A DNA stretch of 64,000 nt from Cirrosporium novae-zelandiae. Its lineage: Eukaryota. The stretch spans positions 1 through 64,000 of the forward strand of contig JAPETS010000006.1 in assembly GCA_026023565.1 (NCBI GenBank), read 5' to 3'. Of this stretch, positions 210 to 17,028 are shown piece by piece. Position 1 is the first letter of the stretch. Every line of letters starts with the position of its first letter. Made by a program: the position numbers and the translations under genes. The notes under the pieces are model-generated. The model worked only from the letters and a program-made list of their open reading frames with translations, made no database searches and had not been told where the DNA came from.

Positions 210-3200
210 ATGGACCTTGCCGTTAATTCTGTCGCTGATCTAAATGATACCCTTCCACAGTCACCACATGCTCCACCTTCCGATTCACAAGCATCTGAGA
301 ATGTTTCTGTGTCGTCGGCTCGTATAAACGAACCCCCTTCATCCTCTCCACAGCCTTTGACAACAACGAGCCAGCAACCTACATTTCATAACATTCACTC
401 ATCAGATGGACAAAACCATGATAGAATGGATCAAAGAGAAGAGACGGGTTCAAATGCAATGGATACAACAAACGTTGCCAGAGATATAGATGCAAATCCA
501 TGGACAAGTCCGTCCGATCAAGACAATGAGGCTATGGACACCACACCCGACCATGCGCCAATCTCAGACGCTTTAGAACTTAATACTGGGGAGGAACAAA
601 ACAATTCACAAGCAACATCTCCACCTGCTGCAGTAATACCTGCATGGAATAACATTGGAGACCTTGATACGAGCAATGCACCAGCCTGGGAGACGAATGC
701 ACCTCCCCCCGAACCTCAACCTGATGCAGTGCCACAGATTCCTCCACAGCCTGTCCCAGCGCCCCTTCAGCAACTTCCAACCATTGTACCCCCACCAAGC
801 TTGCCGGTGAATCCTCGTATCGATCCCGTTTTTAGTGGTGGTTGGGGTGATGGGGATGAGTGGTTCGAAGAAGAAGATAAATCTGTACCTACTGAAGAAG
901 AATTAAAAGAGCTTGAGCGTAAAGGCGGAGAGGTTAGCGCTCTTGATCGTGAGTATTCCTGCTTCCTTTGAAGGTGTTCATGCCTAACCTTAACCAGATG
1001 GACATTGGACAAAGCTCTGCCTTCCAGAAGTTGAAGATCCAGAATATATTCCAGTTGAATCTGGCCGTATCGACTGGACACTTAAAGGCGTTCGTGGAAC
1101 CAAAGCAAACCCTAACCGGGAGCCAGTGATGAAATCCCCATCTGTCTACATAGGAGGCTATCACTGGAACATCAAATACTACCTGAAAGGCAATGCGTCG
1201 CCTTGTCTTTGTGCATATGTCGAGTGTTCGGTTGATCCCCCTAATGATGGCGACCAACTCAAAACTTCTCATGACAAGGAAGCTGGTGAGGCCATGGATA
1301 CCGAAAATGACGACTTGTCAGACGACATGGAAGACAGCGACGAGAGTACACCCCCTCCAGATGAGAAATCTACTAGAGTAGAATCTAAGAAGTGGGAAGT
1401 CCCCGCACAATTCGGTCTCATTATATACAATCCGGCGGAGCCTCGCGTGCTATGTCATGAACGAGCCACACATCAATTTCGTAACAACAGCTCAGATTGG
1501 GGATGGAAATCTTTTAATAACAATTGGAGCACTATCCATAAACGAAAACCATTACAACGTCGAGCTTTGCTGCAAAATGATACCCTTGCCTTCACTGCCT
1601 ATATTCGCGTCTTCAAAGATCACACTAAAAGACTTTGGTGGCATGCAAATCAGAATGAGCAATGGGACAGTCTTAATAGAGCAGGACTTCGGGGCCTTGG
1701 ACATGACCAAGACAATACTGGTTTTGCCGCTGCTCTGTCATCTTGGTTGCTGTTAGCTCCTTTCAGGAAAATACTCCGAAGCATTCCCACAGAAGGTCCT
1801 CAGTCAAAACCACGACCAACTCTCACAGCTATGCAAATAATCCTCTCACATATACAATATCAGCCAAAATCGACTGTTTCTGTGTCTCTGACGTTCTTGA
1901 GGAGTATCATGGGAATATATGGTTACCAGCGATTTTATTCGATGGATGTTGTAGAGCTCTGGGAAACCTTAAGAAATTTCATGGCATTTGAATGCAGAGA
2001 TTTGAAAATTTCGAAAGACTTGCATGAATTGTTTGGTGACCATTACCCAAACATAAAGGGGGGCATGGAAATCGATGCATCTTCTCATACCATTGTCGGG
2101 GGCAAATTCCCAACTCTCAAGGTTCCAGTCCTACTGCAGTCATGTGATCCACATCTCCAAGAACTCATCGAGCATGATTCAATAGCCGCCTCATATCCTC
2201 TTGTTGCGCCAAAATTCCTCACCGTAGAATTAGAGCGACAGATATTTAAGGAGTCTACTCGAAAATGGAAAAAGATTGATAGAAAGGTCATATTAGACGA
2301 GGAAATCAAATTTTCTGTTCCAGGCAATGCTTCTGCAACCAAATACACACTCTATGGTTTCATTGCCCATACAGGAAGTTTGAGATCATCCAACTATCAC
2401 TCTATACTTCGGCCAGGTGGTCCAGGAACTAAATGGCTCCACTTCCTCTGTGACAGTGGAGAAAATGTTGTTCATTGCATCACAAACAAGGAAGCGTTTG
2501 AACTTCAAGGAAGTCCATATGATGCGCCTGAAATTGATTCGAGGATCGGTTTAACCGACAACCGCACAGCTGCCTACGTTGCTATGTATGTACGGAATGA
2601 TGCACTACCTGATTTCCTCCAAGGCTTGCCAGAACCACCCCAGAAATCGACGCCCTCCAAATCCGGTGTAGAGACCAACCCATCAACCCAGCAATCTGTA
2701 TCTGAAGTTCAACCCAAGCCAGAGGATAAGATGTTCGATGTTCGAATATACCGATCTGGTGCATTTACTGGCCATCATGGCCCATGGAGCCTAGATTTTG
2801 CCTCTGTAGCCCAGGATGCGGAAAACAGCGAGCATGTCTATGATTTAACCTTGCCGTCATCTATATCCTTGGAAGACTTCCGCATGAAGGTTTTCAACAT
2901 GGTTGGAGGCTTAGAAAGACCTGAACAGTGCAAGCTTTGGAGATATGTGCAGCATACTCAGTTCGATATTGCCTCGTACGGACGTACCGCTCTGTATACG
3001 CCAGGTCCTGATTCGCCACTTAGAGATCTCTCTTCATCTATTCCTTGCCGGTTTTGGCTTCACATAATCCCGATGGGTAAGTTTATCTGGTCCTAATTTC
3101 TAGAAACGCTTCTAATTACCTTTGCAGAGTTGTTGACCAAAGTGGTTGTACCTATTCAAAACAACCATCCTCAAGTAGATGTGACCTCAGGCGAAGGCGA

Positions 3201-4260
3201 GATGCAAGAGAATGACGACAATATATCACAGACTCCCGATCCAGCTGAAGAAGAGGACACGGATATGCCCGATTCCCCTCATGATGATAATGCCTCGTCT
3301 CCTTCGTCCCACGAATCATCCGAATCCTCCGAATCCGATGATGCTGCTAATTCCGCGTCCAATGGTGATACTTCAATTGAAGACAAATCTCATCCGCAAT
3401 CAGTAACTTTTGAAGAACCAGATCACTGCTACGTCTTTGTCAAACGTCTAGATTTCCAGCTTCAGACTCTCACAGGCACCGGCTTTTTCATGTTCAAGTT
3501 CGGGGACAACGTCAAGGGGGCTATCAAGAAAGCGTTGAAGATACCCGAAGATAAGAGCTTCGCAGTTACAGTTGAGGATTTGCAGGCCGATACCCAGCCC
3601 ATCCGATCTAGCCGCTCCTTCGCCGATGAGGGCATTGACGACGGCACTACATTGATTGTCCATGATGTTCTCAAGGAAAAAGATAGCGAGTCTCTCTTGC
3701 AGAGCGCCTCTTTCACAACCGTTTCCTCCCTTCTTTCCTACCTCCGTCGCAAACCTTTTGATCCTACTGCCAATGCTACTGTGCCTGCGCAGACCACCCG
3801 CTCCTACTATACGCAGGAGCGCTATAAGGGAACAATGCTCCATGGCCTCTACCACGGCCGCGGCCACCTGATCAAACTAAATGGAGACATTTACGACGGC
3901 TCCTTTTCGCATTCCGAATTCTCTGGGCTTGGCACCCTTCACTATGCTAACCGTGATACCTACACTGGCTCATTTTCCCACAATCTATCACATGGCCATG
4001 GCACATTCGAGCAGCACTCAACTGGTAACAAATACGTCGGCAATTTCCAGGAAGGGAAGAAGTATGGAAAAGGCGTTACATACTGGGAGAAGAGTGAAGA
4101 AGAAATGAGGATTTGTCAGATTTGTTATGAGAAGGAAATGGACGCGTTATTTTATAAGTGCGGTCACGTATGTGCATGCGTGGACTGTGCTCGGTGTGTC
4201 GAGGTGTGTCCTGTTTGCAGAAGTGGGGTGGTAGATGTGGTGAGGATCTGGAAGGCCTAA
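210..4260 (+). CDS. MATH + UCH/USP-like (probably catalytically dead) + MORN repeats + C-terminal C3HC4 RING protein; 3 exons (introns 949-997, 3077-3127)
   Basis: Splicing joins ORFs 150-971, 1126-3096 and 3130-4260 in frame. MATH motifs (IGGYHWNIKYY, HQFRNNSSDWGW), USP-like body (PKFLTVELERQIF, YTLYGFIAHTG), 4 MORN repeats (e.g. YDGSFSHSEFSGLGTLHY) and RING CQICYEKEMDALFYKCGHVCACVDCARCVEVCPVCR. Confidence 0.88.
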
Positions 4261-4890
4261 CCTTCTAGGAGTGGAGGGAACAGCCATGGCATGAAATGGT
4301 AATTGGCAAATGGTGAATGGACTATCATATTCTTCCGAGGCATACACTAAATCGGTTGACATACGACGGACAGACAAATGAGGCAATGATAATGGTATAG
4401 GACGGATAATATGGTGTCGATTATAATGTCTGGACAGGGGGGAGGCGTACCAAAGTACGGATTAGTCACCAGGTTGGCGTCGGATTTCTCTCGTTTTTGG
4501 GACTTTGCTTTAGCATTCATACCCTCCTTCGGTTTGTCTCTGGATTTCCTTCATTTCGTGGTGGATAATCTTTCGGGCATGGATATATAGTATAGTAAAA
4601 CACCTGAGAAAAAGAGAAGCTAGAACTACATGTCTAGGTAGAAATTCAGATTCATGGGCTTTTCAATGTATCTAAGGCCTATCATGATAAAATAAAGGAT
4701 TTCCCAACTTGATAAATGTTGGATGTTGAAGGGTAAAATGTGGTGAATGGCCATGATGGATGTAAATTTTTACGTAAGCTACACCTTGGTGGCCAACCTT
4801 TTCCTATTCTCTTTTCCATTTCCATCGTCATCATACTTGTACACAACATCCTCAATTACCATACTATGGTATTTTTCTTCTTAATCGGCC

Positions 4891-5853
4891 ATGTCTTTAC
4901 AGGGTAGAGAAGCCCATATCCCTCCCCCTCTCCATTTAGGCCCGATGGAGGGGGATGAAGCCGACTTCGAGTCACATTACTCACTAGACAAACATTCTTC
5001 CGACTCTGACTTTTCCGACGGCGATGCTGATGACGATAACACTGATCCAAACAAACGCTCTCCATTTCACCATGCTAATTCTTCCTTCTCGGGCCCCAAT
5101 GCTTTTGCCCCGCCATTCTACAATCGCCCACCAACACCACTTCCCCCCTCCCCATCTCTGACTTCCTTACTTCGGCCTTCATTTTCAGCTACAGCGTCCA
5201 GGCCGACAACTCCAACCCCAGATACCTCAGAGAACGAGACACCCAATGATACCGAAGCTGCCGTCGCCAAGTCTGCCCGGACTGCTACAACTGTACCACG
5301 GGCAAGTCCCAAGGTCCCCACATATGAGTATTATGGATTTGTATTATATCTAGTGTCATCTGCTGCATTTTGTAAGCGCTTTCGAATCCTTGGGTATCCT
5401 ATATCTTCTAACCATTTAGTAATTTATCTGCTCTGGTCCTATCTTCCATCGCCGTTTTTACACCAGCTCGGAATATACTATTATCCTAATCGTTGGTGGT
5501 CTCTTGCCATTCCTGCATATCTTGTCATGTCTGTCGTATACATTTACGTCGCTTTGGCTTCTTACAATACGGGTTATTTGACGCTACCAATGAATAGCAT
5601 TGAGAACCTGGTAGATGAGGCTGCCAACATTGCCATCATAGATGGTAAAGGAAGAATAAAAAAGGGCGGCTCATCGAAGCTCAAAAACCAGGCGACCACA
5701 ACATATTATCCCGGCTCGCTCACCTCGCATAAGAAGTTCGACTGGGAAGAAGTGTGGAGCAAGGGAACCGATGCCGTCATGGATGTTCCTATCGGAGGTG
5801 TCTGCGAGATATTATATGGTGAAGGTAGGAGTAGAGATGAAGATGACCTGTAA
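4891..5853 (+). CDS. GPI19: GPI-GlcNAc transferase subunit PIG-P/Gpi19 with long Ser/Pro-rich N-terminus; probable 48-nt intron 5372-5419
   Basis: EYYGFVLYL...YLLWSYLPSPFLHQLGIYYYPNRWWSLAIP and GTDAVMDVPIGGVCEILY are PIG-P family motifs. Intron GTAAGC...CTAAC...TAG. Confidence 0.88.
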   Translation: MSLQGREAHIPPPLHLGPMEGDEADFESHYSLDKHSSDSDFSDGDADDDNTDPNKRSPFHHANSSFSGPNAFAPPFYNRPPTPLPPSPSLTSLLRPSFSATASRPTTPTPDTSENETPNDTEAAVAKSARTATTVPRASPKVPTYEYYGFVLYLVSSAAFCKRFRILGYPISSNHLVIYLLWSYLPSPFLHQLGIYYYPNRWWSLAIPAYLVMSVVYIYVALASYNTGYLTLPMNSIENLVDEAANIAIIDGKGRIKKGGSSKLKNQATTTYYPGSLTSHKKFDWEEVWSKGTDAVMDVPIGGVCEILYGEGRSRDEDDL

Positions 5854-6331: not shown

Positions 6332-7545
6332 ATGGATAAAACAAGATCATCAACACCACCCCGCCAGGCTGCCAAGCCTAATGCAATACTGCCTAACCCA
6401 CCTCTTACGCCAGAGCAAGTGCGCAAAATTGTACGTATTCCTATCACCCCAGTAATCGCCGCGCCTAATACTTACTAGCCAGGAACTCAACCGTTTAAAA
6501 GCAAAAGCAATCAGGGAGCAGCGCGAAGCTGAAGAGAGAAAACAGAACGACTCAACTACACTCAATAGATCGGAGAGCTCTGTGGCAGGGCAGAAACGAG
6601 CCTTCTCTTCAATATCCAAATACGACGTTCCTAGCAATTCCAGAGATGCACGCAATGAAAAGGACTCTCTGCGGCCACTGGATCAAATACGGCCAGCCAA
6701 AAACTTTGCCAAATATGTGGAATACGAGTTCAGTAAGATGACAGACACAAAGGGCGGGTTTATGACTGCAGAGGACGATCCCCATAACAAGGCTCTACAT
6801 ACCCCTGGTTTAGATGAGAAGCCTGCACATATGACCATGAAAGAATGGGAAAGGCATCAGTTGTTAAAAAGTTTAGAGAGGCGCAAAGCCGGGCCCTATG
6901 AACCCGGATTGAGTGTTCTCAAAAAGGATGAACTTAAAAAATGTCGCGAGTGTGGTAGCTTTGAGATCGACTATAAGTGGGAAGAGATTTTCCACTGCGC
7001 TGTTTGCAATGCGTGCAAGGAGAAGGTTCCGGAGAAGTACAGCTTACTTACAAAAACTGAAGCTAGGGAAGACTATCTTCTTACGGAACGTAAGTCAGAC
7101 CTCTACGAAGGCACTCTAGCTGAGAGACATACTGATTCTAGTAGCGGAGCTCAAGGATGAAGAGCTTTTACCTCACCTAGAGCGGCCAAATCCACACAAA
7201 GCTACCTGGAACAATATGATGCTGTTCCTTAGATATCAAGTCGAGGAGTATGCTTTCAGTAAGAAGTGGGGTTCAGCAGATAAACTCGACGAAGAATATA
7301 CCCGACGGGAAAATGAAAAGAAGCGACGAAAAGAAGCAAAATTCAAGTCAAAGCTAGAGGATCTCAAGAAAAAGACCAGGTTCGAAGCATACCGAAGAAG
7401 CCGAAAGGGAGAGGCCACAAATGAAGTAGGGAAAAGCACCAGACACAATCATCAGTGGGGTCGAGCAGTGGAAGATGCTGAGACGGGAATGAGCGTAAAG
7501 ACATGTATCGAATGTGGAATGGAGGTTGAGGAACTAGAATTCTAA
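6332..7545 (+). CDS. RAD14: Nucleotide excision repair protein Rad14/XPA (introns 6431-6482, 7090-7144)
   Basis: ELNRLKAKAIRE, DTKGGF, zinc finger CRECG..CNACK, YSLLTKTEAREDYLLTEPEL, PNPHKATWNNMMLFLRYQVE, C-terminal CIECGMEVEELEF. Confidence 0.95.
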
Positions 7546-8018: not shown

Positions 8019-10780
8019 ATGGCTTGGCAATCATCTTCTGCCATGGCGGGTGGTGGTATGTCACCCGCGGGGAGCGATGTTGGGAATAATGTGGGTAGTC
8101 ATCCTCAGGGGACCGAATATACCCTCCAAGGCAAGTACTCGCCCCCATACCTGACCCCTCAGCTGATGTTGTGGCCTTGGTTCATCGTTGATTCTAACTG
8201 CTACGAATCTAGGCGTCATGCGATTTCTCCAGACCGAATGGCACCGCCACGAACGAGACCGAAATGCTTGGGAGATTGAACGGGCAGAGATGAAGTCTAG
8301 AATAGGCCGGCTAGAGGGGGAGGCTCGTATGGGTAAAAGATTACAGGAATCTCAGGGAAAGCTCGTCAAAATCCTAGAGCAGGCCCTGAAAAGGGAGCGG
8401 GAGAAGGTAAAGAGTCTATCCTCACCGAATGGAAAGTTGGAAGGCGAGAAGGCAAACGTGACTGCCGAGAAGGATTTCGACAAAGTGCATATAAAGCGTG
8501 AGCGCCTCAGATCGCTGAAGAATCGATTTAAAATTATTTACTCATCCAAATCAGCCCCTCCTCCCAAACCGCAGAATTCTTTCTTGGATACCACAACCGA
8601 CCCCGAAGAAAATGAGCAAAACCAACAAGAAGAAAACGACCGAGATAAATCCAAGTCTTATTTAGGGAAGTTTAATCAGGAATTCTTTTACCACATGATC
8701 CCACCCGCACAACCGTTTATACCACCCGACGAACAGCAGGAGGAGCCTCCTAATCATCTATACCCTAACGAACACCCCCAGCCAACTTTGGAAGATGTAT
8801 ATCTACATCAACGGCAACAGAAGCCTTATTTGAATAATGTCAGTATGACTCGGGAACCCTCCTTACAGAATCACTTAGCACCGATACCCCCATCTGGCTC
8901 TAATCATATAGACATGTCCCGCCAAAATGAACAACTACAACCGCCTACCTCTATGATGATGACTCGAGATTTTCCAGACCAACAGCTACAAAACCAAGTT
9001 GAACCCATAACGGCGATTGATCATCGAAAGCAGACACCTTTAGATATGCCGCCATCGCATGAAGACCAGGTTGAACACGTTACCCATGCATTTGATGCTT
9101 ATGGTAGGGAAATACCAAGTAGAGAAAATGCCGAGAATATGCGGATGTCTGAGGCAGTGGATGGGACAGATGGATGGGACTTTTCTGAACCAATAATTAC
9201 AAACGAACAACCACCAGAATACGCTGCTCCGCAACGACCAGATACCGACGCATTCCCACCAGCATCTACAATTCCGCCGAAATCACCTCCCAGACCTAGT
9301 CCCGGGTCGCATCGAAGAAAGAGCTCGGGTGCAAGGCGGCGGAGTGAGGTTCCACAAAGCGTCCGTGAAGGGTCTACCAATGCTGTGAAATCAGATAGTT
9401 CCAGTTTCAAAGTTCGATTTGCCCTCCGAGGTCATCTTGATGTTGTGCGATCTGTTATTTTCACTGGGGGCGGAAGTCCCTCGGAACCTGAAATCTGTAC
9501 AGCAGGTGATGATGGAGTAATTAAAAGATGGGTCATTCCAGCCAACTACGGGAACTTCGGAGCACATGGTGGGAGTGTTAATGATCTGGACGTTACCAGT
9601 TATTTCACTCATAGGGGTCACACCGGTTCTGTCACCTCTCTTGCAGCATGTCCGGCGTCTCAGAACTTTTCCAATGGAGGGAGAGCATTGGGTGATGGGT
9701 GGGTATTCTCTGGTGGGCAGGATGCAACCGTAAAGGTTTGGGAGAGAGGAAGGGTAGACCCGAAAGCTACCCTTGATGGGCACACCGATGCGGTTTGGGC
9801 TCTATGCGTCCTACCAGGTACATCTGCTTCAGTATTTGGAGATGACTGTAGCCACTATGGTGGTGCAGAAAGAATACTACTTGCATCAGGCGCAGCGGAT
9901 GGAACCATCCTAATATGGGCGGTCAGTCCTCCTCCACAGCTCACCTCACCACAAACAAGTGGAAGGAGAGGGGCTGGTGGAGGTCGGAGATCAAATTCAG
10001 TCTCGTCTGGATCCAATTTCCCATCGTCACCCCAACCAAGTACAGCTTCATCTACACCATTCAATTACGCCTTGGTACATCGAATACAACGAACGGGCGA
10101 ATCTTCTCCAACCTGTATATCTCCGTTATCCTTGCGCGGCGATACTTTTGTCGCTTCCTTTACCGATGCGTCGGTTCTCATATTCGATACCCGAACAGGT
10201 GAGGAGGTTGTGGGCATGGCAAGTTTAGAAACCTACGACGGTACCCCTACCACAGGCGTCAACTGTGTCGTTGCCACCACCGTCGGTCTAGAGAGCTCTA
10301 TGGCCCTAGATTCAGGTAGAGGATTATCCGAGGACGATAGCATGGTACACGGTGCAACCGGATCAAGCGGCGGTGTCGAAGGAGTCGTAATCAGCGGTCA
10401 TGAAGATCGCTTCATAAGGTTCTTCGATGCCAACAGTGGTAAGACCCTATTTCCCCAATCCTTTTTTTCTTTCTCAGACCAGACTTAAAATGCTGACTTT
10501 TCTTTTTCTTCGTTTTACAGGCCAATGCACATACACCATGCTAGCCCATCCAGCCGCCATAGCCTCCCTCTCGCTGTCTCCGGATGGTAGGGAACTTGTT
10601 TCTGCTGGACATGACGCGAGTCTCCGATTCTGGTCTCTAGAAAAACGAAGCTGTACTCAGGAAATCACTAGTCATCGGCTCATGCGTGGTGAGGGCGTGT
10701 GCGCGGTTGTTTGGAGTCAGGATGGACGGTGGGTTGTTAGTGGGGGTGGGGATGGTGTCGTTAAGGTCTTTTCTAGATGA
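8019..10780 (+). CDS. PRO11: Striatin (STRIPAK scaffold, Pro11/StrA/HAM-3/Far8 family), N-terminal coiled coil + WD40; introns 8131-8212 (GC-AG), probably 8498-8554, and 10439-10520
   Basis: The spliced N-terminus [35 protein letters not shown] is the striatin signature. WD40 repeats include [30 protein letters not shown]. Confidence 0.95.
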
Positions 10781-14618: not shown

Positions 14619-17028
14619 TTATAGTTTTGCTTTCATGTTATCTTCCATGCTTGTCGTCTGTCCACCAGCATTCTTCTTCTTTTCTATGTCTTGTGCTGCA
14701 TGAAATTCATCGTATAGCTGGTCTAGCCTTTCCCGGTATTGCTTCGCCGTTTGTGGACGCTTGAGCTTGAGCCTGCACGGTGGTTCATCAGTAACACTAA
14801 TCAAATCTTCATAACAAGAACAACTTACGTCGGTGTCAAGAGCTCATTCTCAATTGAGAATGGTTCTATTTCTAACCAGCAGTTTCTAACTCTCTCAAAG
14901 CCCTGGAATTTATTCCGTTTCGCCACCCCCTCAAGATCTCTGACCACAGCCTTCCTTACCTTTTCATCCTTGACTAATTCATCCACTTCCTCCGTCCTGA
15001 CTGTTCGTCCCAAAATGTGATGGTGTGTGAGCCAGCCAGCAAAAGCATCCGCCTGGACGCCCAGAATCCCGACTAGGCAATCTCGATGCGAATCACCATG
15101 AACATATGCCTGCGAAAGGTAGTTGCAATTCGAGAGAATTACATTCTCAATGCGTTCAGGGGATATATACTCTCCATGAGATAGCTTCAGCACATTCTTT
15201 CGACGATCAATAATAGCAAAACGTCCCAGACCGTCGATGGTGCAAATATCACCTGTACGGAACCATCCATCTTCCGTCCAAGCCTTGGCAGTTTCCTCCG
15301 GGTCGCGATAGTATTCTGTAAAGCAGTTTGGACCACGGATAAGGAGCTCTCCACGTGGGAATGGCTTGTCGGTAGAATGATACTCCATGTCCGGGACATC
15401 CATGAGACAGCACTCAGAAACCGGGGCTACGGAACCGCAGTTCCCAGAGCTGAGGTCATCTTCCTGCTGGCAAAGGCCCACAGCATATGATTCGGTGAGA
15501 CCGTAGCCTTGAACGAACGTGTTACAAAAAACAATGCGCAGGAATTGTTGAAGGGAGGGATCTAGAGGAGCAGATCCAGATACCATGTATTTACATCGAT
15601 CTAACCCTAGTGTCCTGCTGACCTTGTTCGCCCATATGCGGTCATACGCCCAATGTGTGTGGGTGGGTGCTTTCCCTTTCGGTGGTTTTGTGAGAGCAGC
15701 GAGTTTGGTGGAGATAACGTGGCGGGAGAGAGCCCCACGGAAACCCGTGGCTTCCAGAGTATTACCTTTGATTGCACCGCCAAACCGGTTATATAGACGC
15801 GGTACAGAGGGAAGAAGCGTTGGACGCAACGCCGTTAGATCATCAACTAGCTCAAGCATGTTACCATGGAAATAACCGATACAGCCACCAGCCCAGAGCA
15901 TTCCATGTTCAGTCATCCGAGCGTAAATATGCGCCAATGGAAGATATGAACATAGAATATCGTTCGCCCCTGTACCAATACTTGTCACGGAGCATGTTGC
16001 TGCTGCAACGGCTGCCGATTGTGTGAGAATAACGCCCTTTGGAGGTCCAGTGGTTCCAGAGGTATAGTTGATGGTAATAAAATCGGTTGGCTTTGGGGGG
16101 TTATAAGGTCGATCTAGCGATTTTCCGAGTTCTTCAACTTGCGTAATCGTGTATATCTCTACTCCGCAATTTTTAGATATTTTCGACAGCAAATCAAACT
16201 TGGAATAGCCCGGTTGATCTCTACCATCATCGAGAGCATCCAAAGACACGATGAACTTCAGGTTTGGCAAATGAGGCTTTAGTTTGAGAAGCATTGGGAT
16301 ATGGGGCAGAGATGCAACGACGCAATGCAGCGACGCATGGTTAATAATGTATTCGGCAGCATCTGGTCCCAAGGTATCATATATAGACACCGTGTAAAGA
16401 GATTGGGACTGGCACGCAAGATCTAAGGAAGCATTTGTTAGCTTTCAATTTATTAACCTTACCAATATCGCTAGGAGTCGTACCAGTGATTTGCCACTCT
16501 GGACGATTTTGACACCACAATCCAATTCCAAAGCTCTCGTCTACAACACCAGCCCCGCGATGCAGCTCAACCAAACCCACGCCAAAATTAGCTCGTCTGC
16601 GTTGCACGGTTTGATAATCCATCCATTGATACGGTCCGTAGCTTTTCTTGTCTGCGTTGTACGATCGGTACCCGAGGCATGGACGGTGCGGCTGCCGCTG
16701 AGCTATTTCCCCCATTAGGACGTACATATATATTGAGAAGCACATCCAACATACCTGTCTGCTCAAACATTTCATGGGCAGTCCGTATCTAACCATATTT
16801 TCTTAGTACACTCCTCCCATATTTATTTATTCCATAGGGCCTCACATTTGGATCTAGCGTATCAAGGGGGCCATCTTTAACGAATCTCCAATGTCTATAA
16901 ACCTTGCTTCGTCCTTCTTTTTCCGAACCAGGAACAGGAAGTGAGTATGGTTGACCTGGAGGAGGAGGTGGTACGATCTCTGCTGCCCGTTGCAAATGCG
17001 GAGGCAGAGTGCCGAATAATCCAGCCAT
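14619..17028 (-). CDS. faaB: Long-chain fatty acyl-CoA synthetase, peroxisomal type (FaaB/Faa2-like); 5 exons
   Basis: AMP-binding motifs INYTSGTTGPPKGV, QGYGLTES, GWFRTGD, IIDRRKNVLKLSHGEYISPE and LTPT|LKLKR. The protein ends in the PTS1 tripeptide -AKL. Confidence 0.92.

Follow-up and report, generated by a model that had tools for sequence, protein, structure and literature searches.

What becomes of a deubiquitinase (DUB) fold once its catalytic residues are gone and a ubiquitin-ligase domain lies on the same chain? The question is raised by a spliced gene near the start of a 64,000-nucleotide stretch of DNA from the fungus Cirrosporium novae-zelandiae (class Xylobotryomycetes, Pezizomycotina), namely positions 1 to 64,000 of the forward strand of contig JAPETS010000006.1 (GenBank assembly GCA_026023565.1), referred to here as the window. 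The product comprises a disordered N-terminus, a MATH domain, a ubiquitin-specific protease (USP) fold, a first ubiquitin-like domain (UBL1), an acidic linker, a second ubiquitin-like domain (UBL2), four MORN repeats and a RING domain, in that order. Its spliced translation is letter-for-letter identical to a public protein of 1316 amino acids (P0001 in our set), deposited as 'MAG: hypothetical protein M1834_008060 [Cirrosporium novae-zelandiae]'. In this study, we describe the architecture of this protein, the loss of the catalytic triad throughout its family, the purifying selection that acts on the inactive domain and the integrity of the RING. Taken as a whole, the chain probably adds ubiquitin and does not remove it.

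The domain assignment draws on Pfam searches of the exon translations with curated cut-offs, on a family profile built from an alignment of 55 sequences (A1) and on AlphaFold models of exon 2 (predicted local distance difference test score, pLDDT, 81; predicted template-modelling score, pTM, 0.80) and exon 3 (pLDDT 82.9). Four Pfam families score above their cut-offs: MATH_2 (45.4 bits, cut-off 32; 1.3e-11), UCH (38.2 bits, cut-off 23.9; 1.5e-9), MORN (37.4 bits, cut-off 22.5; 1.8e-9) and zf-C3HC4_3 (39.6 bits, cut-off 27; 4.5e-10). USP7_ICP0_bdg reached 21.8 bits (1.4e-4), under its cut-off of 27, and no Pfam family matched the exon 1 translation. The MATH domain aligns with USP7 residues 87-205 and is modelled with pLDDT mostly above 85; its DWGW motif, which aligns with DWGF of USP7, is invariant or nearly so (exon 2 residues D166, W167, G168 and W169). 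The strands and helices of UBL1 are modelled at exon 2 residues 578-689. The exon 3 model consists of about 90 disordered acidic residues followed by a beta-grasp UBL, eight MORN strands and the RING, and disorder is predicted for the N-terminal 246 amino acids of the protein as well as for exon 3 residues 1-90. In this model UBL2 (pLDDT >90) returns Foldseek matches to USP7 UBL structures at about 1e-5, and the MORN region (residues 220-318, eight strands, pLDDT >90, four repeats of the YxGxW..G.G type readable in the sequence) matches MORN1 at 4.6e-10 with a root-mean-square deviation of 1.3-1.9 A over about 100 columns. A preliminary description of the locus, made from the DNA letters alone, had listed the MATH domain, the USP-like fold, the four MORN repeats and the RING, all of which are recovered here; it had missed the disordered regions and the two USP7-type UBLs. 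Two is also the full UBL count, and MORN repeats and a RING follow where USP7 has five UBLs and an activating C-terminal peptide.

The best match of the front half is USP7, by both sequence and fold. The family profile matches full-length human USP7 at 6.5e-50, running through the MATH domain, the catalytic domain, UBL1 (continuous over 120-668) and UBL2 (680-796), and the next USP in the same search, USP47, follows at 5.7e-14. The profile also matches MORN1 at 7e-39 and the RINGs of cIAP, MYLIP and XIAP at about 1e-12. When the exon 2 model was compared with known structures using Foldseek, USP7 was again first (9a9w_O, 2.6e-29; 2f1z, comprising the MATH and catalytic domains, 9.3e-23), with template-modelling (TM) scores of 0.65-0.73 to isolated USP7 catalytic domains (0.73 for 5nge_B). 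The relationship rests on these profile and fold matches to the Protein Data Bank (PDB), a length-restricted search having returned only fragments and family members. They indicate that the family began as a paralogue of USP7/Ubp15, a deubiquitinase, as the preliminary description had proposed. The central domain has the fold of peptidase C19, with UCH above cut-off and TM scores in the range just given, and its Fingers look reduced. A DUB fold is present and the catalytic residues of a DUB are absent, the combination that defines a pseudo-DUB.

The absence concerns every member of the triad. The Cys box (GLRGLGHDQDNTGFAAALSSW, 1684-1746) contains no Cys anywhere, and the Pfam UCH match begins only at profile position 20, leaving this box outside it. 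Pairwise alignment to human USP7 with phmmer places NTGF on ATCY and SSNY on GGHY, so that Gly488 lies opposite the catalytic Cys223; the family profile moves Cys223 by one residue, to Thr487. The Cys-to-Gly exchange named in the preliminary description is therefore correct as a loss of Cys, and Gly as the exact replacement depends on the alignment. The exchange of His for Asn that it named stands without change, the His box (FIAHTGSLRSSNYHSILRP, 2359-2415) carrying Asn712 opposite His464. The peptide WLHFLCD, which it also quoted, is found at 2434-2454 and has Leu730 at the position of Asp481. The oxyanion residue Asn218 of USP7 is likewise replaced, by His482. Whether the loss is shared by relatives, a check which that description had suggested, was examined in a hidden Markov model alignment of 240 sequences, 238 of which cover both boxes. 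No Cys is present within two columns of the Cys position in 236/238 sequences, and the His position, with the same margin of two columns, is devoid of His in 219/238; in none of the 238 do a Cys and a His occur together near the catalytic columns. Among the first 120 long homologues, neither a canonical Cys box nor a canonical His box was found.

The domain is not decaying. In all six pairs of related metagenome loci compared, the ratio of nonsynonymous to synonymous substitution rates (dN/dS) of the dead USP domain is 0.06-0.14, and in the same pairs it is 0-0.14 for MATH and 0-0.03 for MORN plus RING where these are covered. The dead domain is thus under strong purifying selection. Many of its residues are invariant or near-invariant, above all those of the loop that follows the former His box, R718-P719-x-G721-P722-x3-W726.

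At the opposite end of the chain the RING is preserved. All eight zinc ligands, which the preliminary description had called intact, are present with C3HC4 spacing, and in 39 aligned sequences they are invariant together with F341, G345, P361 and R364, the Arg directly after the last ligand; Ile331, directly behind the first Cys, reaches a conservation of 90% or more in the same set. For the last 59 residues a gap-free alignment of 50 residues to cIAP2 (3eb5) was obtained at 5.2e-12, with equally gap-free ones to the RINGs of cIAP1, BIRC7, XIAP and MYLIP, and there were also matches to MUL1 and to MDM2/MDM4. The alignment ends three residues short of the C-terminus, in cIAP2 as in the window protein. 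A RING with an aromatic residue three positions from the end closes 71 of the 120 long homologues, with tails such as VVKIYRT and VVRIWKA. In IAP- and MDM2-type RING dimers, contacts to the E2~ubiquitin conjugate are made by a hydrophobic residue next to the first Cys, by the Arg that follows the final ligand and by an aromatic residue in the C-terminal tail, and the family keeps all three positions (Ile331, R364 and a W, Y or F three positions from the end). Dimerization through the tail is typical of the IAP and MDM2 RINGs; for the RING of this family it is a candidate property only.

The argument requires that both halves belong to one protein. An alternative is that MORN repeats and RING belong to a gene of their own, which the gene model joins in error across intron 2, and this alternative can point to an in-frame TAA inside that intron (3094-3096) and to the 49 of 120 long homologues that end without a RING. 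Most of the latter come from sources without names and end where the loci break, and we read them as open reading frame (ORF) calls made on unspliced DNA. A scan of metagenome contigs yielded 80 related loci, 47 of which contain both the His-box loop motif and the RING; in 27 of these 47 the MATH domain or His box and the RING share a single uninterrupted ORF of 911-1440 codons, which argues that the fusion is real. The RING ORF follows closely in the other 20, as an intron would give. UCH and zf-C3HC4_3 occur together in 90-99% of the members of three ESM Atlas clusters (80, 71 and 189 members). In the window itself, the splice signals of intron 2 are canonical and the frame is kept, and only 51 nt separate the two parts, with no start-codon context or promoter gap. 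A separate MORN-RING gene is accordingly a negligible prospect, and the single spliced gene of the preliminary description, with MATH, USP-like, MORN and RING parts, is borne out by the identity of its product with the public protein and by the single-ORF relatives.

The window gene belongs, as the orthologue in Cirrosporium, to an old family of Pezizomycotina. Named members are found in Eurotiomycetes, Dothideomycetes, Lecanoromycetes, Candelariomycetes, Coniocybomycetes, Geoglossomycetes and Sareomycetes, besides the Xylobotryomycete Cirrosporium, and include the well-studied genera Aspergillus, Talaromyces, Histoplasma, Blastomyces, Paracoccidioides, Zymoseptoria and Alternaria. Among the matches listed, no named member came from Sordariomycetes, yeasts or Basidiomycota, which is weak evidence as to these groups. 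In a quick maximum-likelihood tree of 44 named members, unrooted within the family, the window protein stands beside Eurotiomycetes with a Shimodaira-Hasegawa-like approximate likelihood-ratio test (SH-aLRT) value of 87, and the tree roughly tracks the fungal classes, suggesting vertical descent. A short form of about 860-990 amino acids was also observed (L061, L067-L079; P0242-P0300), with MATH, dead USP fold, MORN and RING and no UBLs. It makes up one well-supported Dothideomycetes clade containing Zymoseptoria, Cladosporium, Hortaea, Pseudocercospora, Friedmanniomyces and others, with Aureobasidium as sister; one record of 'Oleoguttula sp.' has the long form and Oleoguttula mirabilis the short form.

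The public names of these proteins are generic or wrong, in agreement with the preliminary description, which had expected only generic annotation. They include 'MATH and UCH domain protein', 'ubiquitin thiolesterase', 'Ubiquitin carboxyl-terminal hydrolase 21', 'Peptidase C19 ubiquitin carboxyl-terminal hydrolase 2', 'Alsin' and 'Translation initiation factor IF-2, N-terminal region'. Those that call the proteins hydrolases ascribe to them an activity for which their sequences give no support. With members annotated as active hydrolases or under unrelated names, the DUB inventories of these fungi would be inflated and their ligase inventories short by one. In the literature searched, which comprised journals outside subscription, no paper was found on the family or on any inactive USP7 copy that is fused to a RING, and the exact phrase 'MATH and UCH domain' returned 0 papers. 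In the available text of a review of fungal DUBs, canonical UBP15 is the only enzyme listed with a MATH domain, and the word 'MORN' does not occur.

How might such a protein work? In USP7, the TRAF/MATH domain picks targets, UBL4-5 and the C-terminal residues activate catalysis, and a large share of the partners are E3 ligases, according to the accessible part of a published account (PMC8720671). In the family described here the target-picking front half is kept, and catalysis and the activating rear half are replaced by a ligase module; we read it, on balance, as most likely a single-chain RING E3 ubiquitin ligase built on the substrate-docking scaffold of USP7. The ancestor would have retained the front half of USP7 (MATH, USP fold, UBL1 and UBL2), and the catalytic Cys, His and Asp would have been lost together with UBL3-5 and the C-terminal peptide, with four MORN repeats and an IAP-type RING in their stead. 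The RING would bring in a charged E2, clients would be selected by the MATH groove and perhaps by UBL2, the dead USP fold would act as a constrained, non-catalytic scaffold or docking surface and the MORN repeats may provide localization or assembly. The preliminary description had assigned substrate or ubiquitin binding to the dead domain. Substrate binding is the better supported of the two, through the conserved DWG motif, which however lies in the MATH domain and not in the USP fold, and ubiquitin binding is weakened by the reduced Fingers discussed below. A more specific and rather speculative proposal, which we consider improbable as it stands, is that of an antagonistic pair, in which the ligase ubiquitinates the clients that are deubiquitinated by the canonical Ubp15/USP7 of the same fungus. 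On this proposal, the retention of the client-docking modules of USP7 (MATH groove, UBL2) would mean the same clients, the dead fold would offer a new docking surface and would not bind ubiquitin, and a conserved motif in the disordered N-terminus, MDTxPD, would be a regulatory or self-docking site. If true, a writer and an eraser would share one reader.

MD[TS] occurs upstream of MATH in 60 of the 82 members with at least 150 amino acids there, against 148 of 1640 (9%) shuffled upstream regions. MDTxPD includes a Ser/Thr-Pro site and may for this reason be a phosphorylation or docking motif. The window protein has extra MDT copies at 459-467 and 1294-1302, the latter within the acidic stretch inserted into its MATH domain.

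Several observations weigh against a ligase built on a dead scaffold, and they bear first on whether the fold is dead in every lineage. A His lies within two columns of the catalytic column in 19 of the 238 sequences, for example in the Blastomyces group and Pyrenula, and occupies the column itself in P0040, P0048 and P0094, among others; a Cys is found at the Asn218 column in 71 of 240 sequences, mostly unnamed or from lichen fungi. Some lineages may therefore differ, and the retained residues look like relics or lineage quirks. The proteins with a nearby His and the Asn218-column variants include P0040, P0048, P0050, P0055, P0094 and P0103. There are also precedents for misjudged pseudoenzymes: USP53 and USP54 were once annotated as such and later found to be active, as stated in the available portion of PMC12037411, and activity has been claimed for USP52 and USP39, the inactivity of which is debated (PMC10919355, available text). 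These precedents favour a second explanation, namely that the protein is still a deubiquitinase whose nucleophile and base are non-canonical and lie at other places in the fold, hence a true DUB-E3 hybrid. The window domain does contain four Cys residues (579, 629, 731 and 740), and the His box keeps its structural His, His704, at 97% conservation. Nevertheless, no column of the domain is Cys in at least 50% of the 240 sequences (maximum 43%, and 0-43% at the positions of the four window residues), which leaves the family without a common substitute nucleophile; the Cys box is unmatched by Pfam UCH, and the activating UBL4-5 and C-terminal peptide of USP7 are missing. A surviving deubiquitinase activity is thus very unlikely.

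The Fingers raise a different difficulty. This region holds ubiquitin in USPs, and in the family profile it shows a gap of 17 columns relative to USP7; in the model it is reduced to one five-residue strand and a loop of pLDDT <50 at exon 2 residues 350-368. The shortening makes ubiquitin reading by the dead domain doubtful. It has to be set against the possibility that the dead fold is a ubiquitin reader that binds ubiquitinated clients or the product of its own chain and extends chains in an E4-like manner. The USP fold has kept its palm and thumb, both under strong constraint, and active-site Cys mutants of USPs commonly retain ubiquitin binding, both of which suit a reader; the reduced Fingers and the replaced oxyanion and cleft residues do not. 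A ubiquitin-binding role would accordingly be a doubtful and weaker alternative to that of a scaffold, and we regard it as unlikely. As for the RING, it appears competent from its residues, and intact ligands need not mean an active ligase. It could instead be a structural zinc knot or a partner-binding domain, the protein being a non-enzymatic adaptor such as a decoy that competes with Ubp15/USP7 for MATH clients. Inactive RINGs of the same kind exist, and MDM4, which is inactive on its own, is among the matches. However, the conservation of R364, of Ile331 and of the aromatic tail exceeds the needs of zinc binding, and it is these residues that contact E2~ubiquitin in IAP-type RINGs; a non-ligase RING is therefore quite improbable. 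Finally, the branch that leads to the window protein is long (1.11; the median is 0.52), no relative is more than 36% identical to it, and no experiment on any family member was found in the literature searched. The architecture is solid and old, and the proposed ligase function should be testable in model fungi; the tractable Aspergillus nidulans has an orthologue.

The positions of the features are collected in the table below. The junction across intron 1 (SALD-H-GHW) matches the family consensus SALDxxHW without a gap. Because of the TAA in intron 2, an unspliced message would stop after UBL1 and before UBL2, MORN and RING. The length of this intron is a multiple of three, and its retention would yield a RING-less protein of MATH, USP fold and UBL1.

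Features of the gene and its product, with positions in the window
Feature	Position	Strand	Details or basis
Spliced gene, three exons	210-4260	+	1316 codons after splicing
Exon 1: start codon and disordered acidic/Pro-rich N-terminus	210-948	+	P0001 residues 1-246 and first base of codon 247
Conserved motif EAMDTTPD, disordered N-terminus	528-551	+	Family consensus MDTxPD; [DE]xMDT[ST/A]PD
Intron 1, 49 nt, GTGAGT..CAG	949-997	+	
Exon 2: MATH, pseudo-USP, UBL1	998-3076	+	
MATH/TRAF domain with disordered acidic insert (1261-1374)	1039-1620	+	Pfam MATH_2, USP7 alignment, model
Catalytically dead USP fold, P0001 residues 469-781	1663-2601	+	Pfam UCH, family profile, Foldseek
Thr487-Gly488, place of USP7 catalytic Cys223	1717-1722	+	phmmer gives Gly; family profile gives Thr
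Asn712, place of USP7 catalytic His464	2392-2394	+	phmmer, family profile
Leu730, place of USP7 Asp481	2446-2448	+	Counted from aligned KW
UBL1 (beta-grasp), equivalent of USP7 UBL1	2731-3066	+	Profile through USP7 560-668; model
Intron 2, 51 nt, GTAAGT..GCAG, in frame	3077-3127	+	
Exon 3: acidic disordered linker (~3130-3414), UBL2, MORN repeats, RING, stop codon	3128-4260	+	
UBL2, equivalent of USP7 UBL2	3424-3666	+	Profile against USP7 680-796; Foldseek; sub-threshold USP7_ICP0_bdg
Four MORN repeats, eight beta-strands in hairpins	3787-4083	+	Pfam MORN, Foldseek, model
C3HC4 RING of IAP/MYLIP/MDM2 kind, extreme C-terminus	4096-4257	+	First ligand Cys 4114-4116

Directly upstream of the gene, near the window start, lies a run of 12 C (21-32). 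The neighbours in the window (4885-62160) are housekeeping genes of the usual fungal kind and offer no clue to function. They encode PIG-P (4885-5853), an XPA/Rad14-like protein (6456-7160), a striatin with WD40 repeats (8167-10488) and, on the minus strand, an AMP-binding enzyme (14825-16444), as well as a Cys/Met PLP enzyme, an NAA35-like protein, an M16 peptidase, RPC82, RIC1, a LARP1-like La protein, an alpha-amylase, a methyltransferase and a stomatin/Band 7 protein.

Among known systems, USP7/HAUSP (yeast Ubp15, peptidase C19) shares with the family the MATH domain with its DWG motif, the USP fold, UBL1 and UBL2 in equal order; it differs in that the family has replaced the catalytic Cys, His and Asp and the oxyanion Asn, has shortened Fingers and carries MORN repeats and a RING in place of UBL3-5 and the activating C-terminal peptide. 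The IAP, MYLIP (IDOL), MUL1 and MDM2 C-terminal RINGs (zf-C3HC4_3) resemble that of the family in their gapless alignment, eight ligands, Arg after the last ligand and place at the extreme C-terminus, with a tail equal in length to that of cIAP2, whereas the domains upstream are unrelated.

Pseudo-DUBs are known as scaffolds and allosteric activators, and DUB-E3 pairs are a common regulatory motif. In the TRAF proteins, TRIM37 and the MATH adaptor SPOP, client recognition by MATH is combined with RING-dependent ubiquitination. In TRAF and TRIM37, however, the RING is N-terminal and the MATH domain C-terminal with a coiled coil between them; in the family MATH comes first and the RING last, with a dead USP fold, two UBLs and MORN repeats in between, and the comparison here covers the MATH and RING domains. 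Eraser and writer are coupled in one chain in A20/TNFAIP3, the eraser of which is an OTU enzyme and not a USP, and in stable complexes in the partnerships of USP7 with MDM2, ICP0, TRIM27, RNF220 and others; as the eraser half of the present family is dead, the coupling here would be structural and not an editing cycle. The USP pseudo-DUBs USP39/Sad1 and PAN2/USP52 likewise combine a USP fold without canonical catalytic residues with non-catalytic roles, as described in the available text of PMC10919355, but they are spliceosome or deadenylase scaffolds from other USP branches and have no ligase domain. USP pseudoenzymes and ligases with RING and MATH are thus already known, and what appears to be new is a dead copy of USP7 that bears a RING in the same chain, which makes the family a natural test of the reuse of reader modules between eraser and writer.

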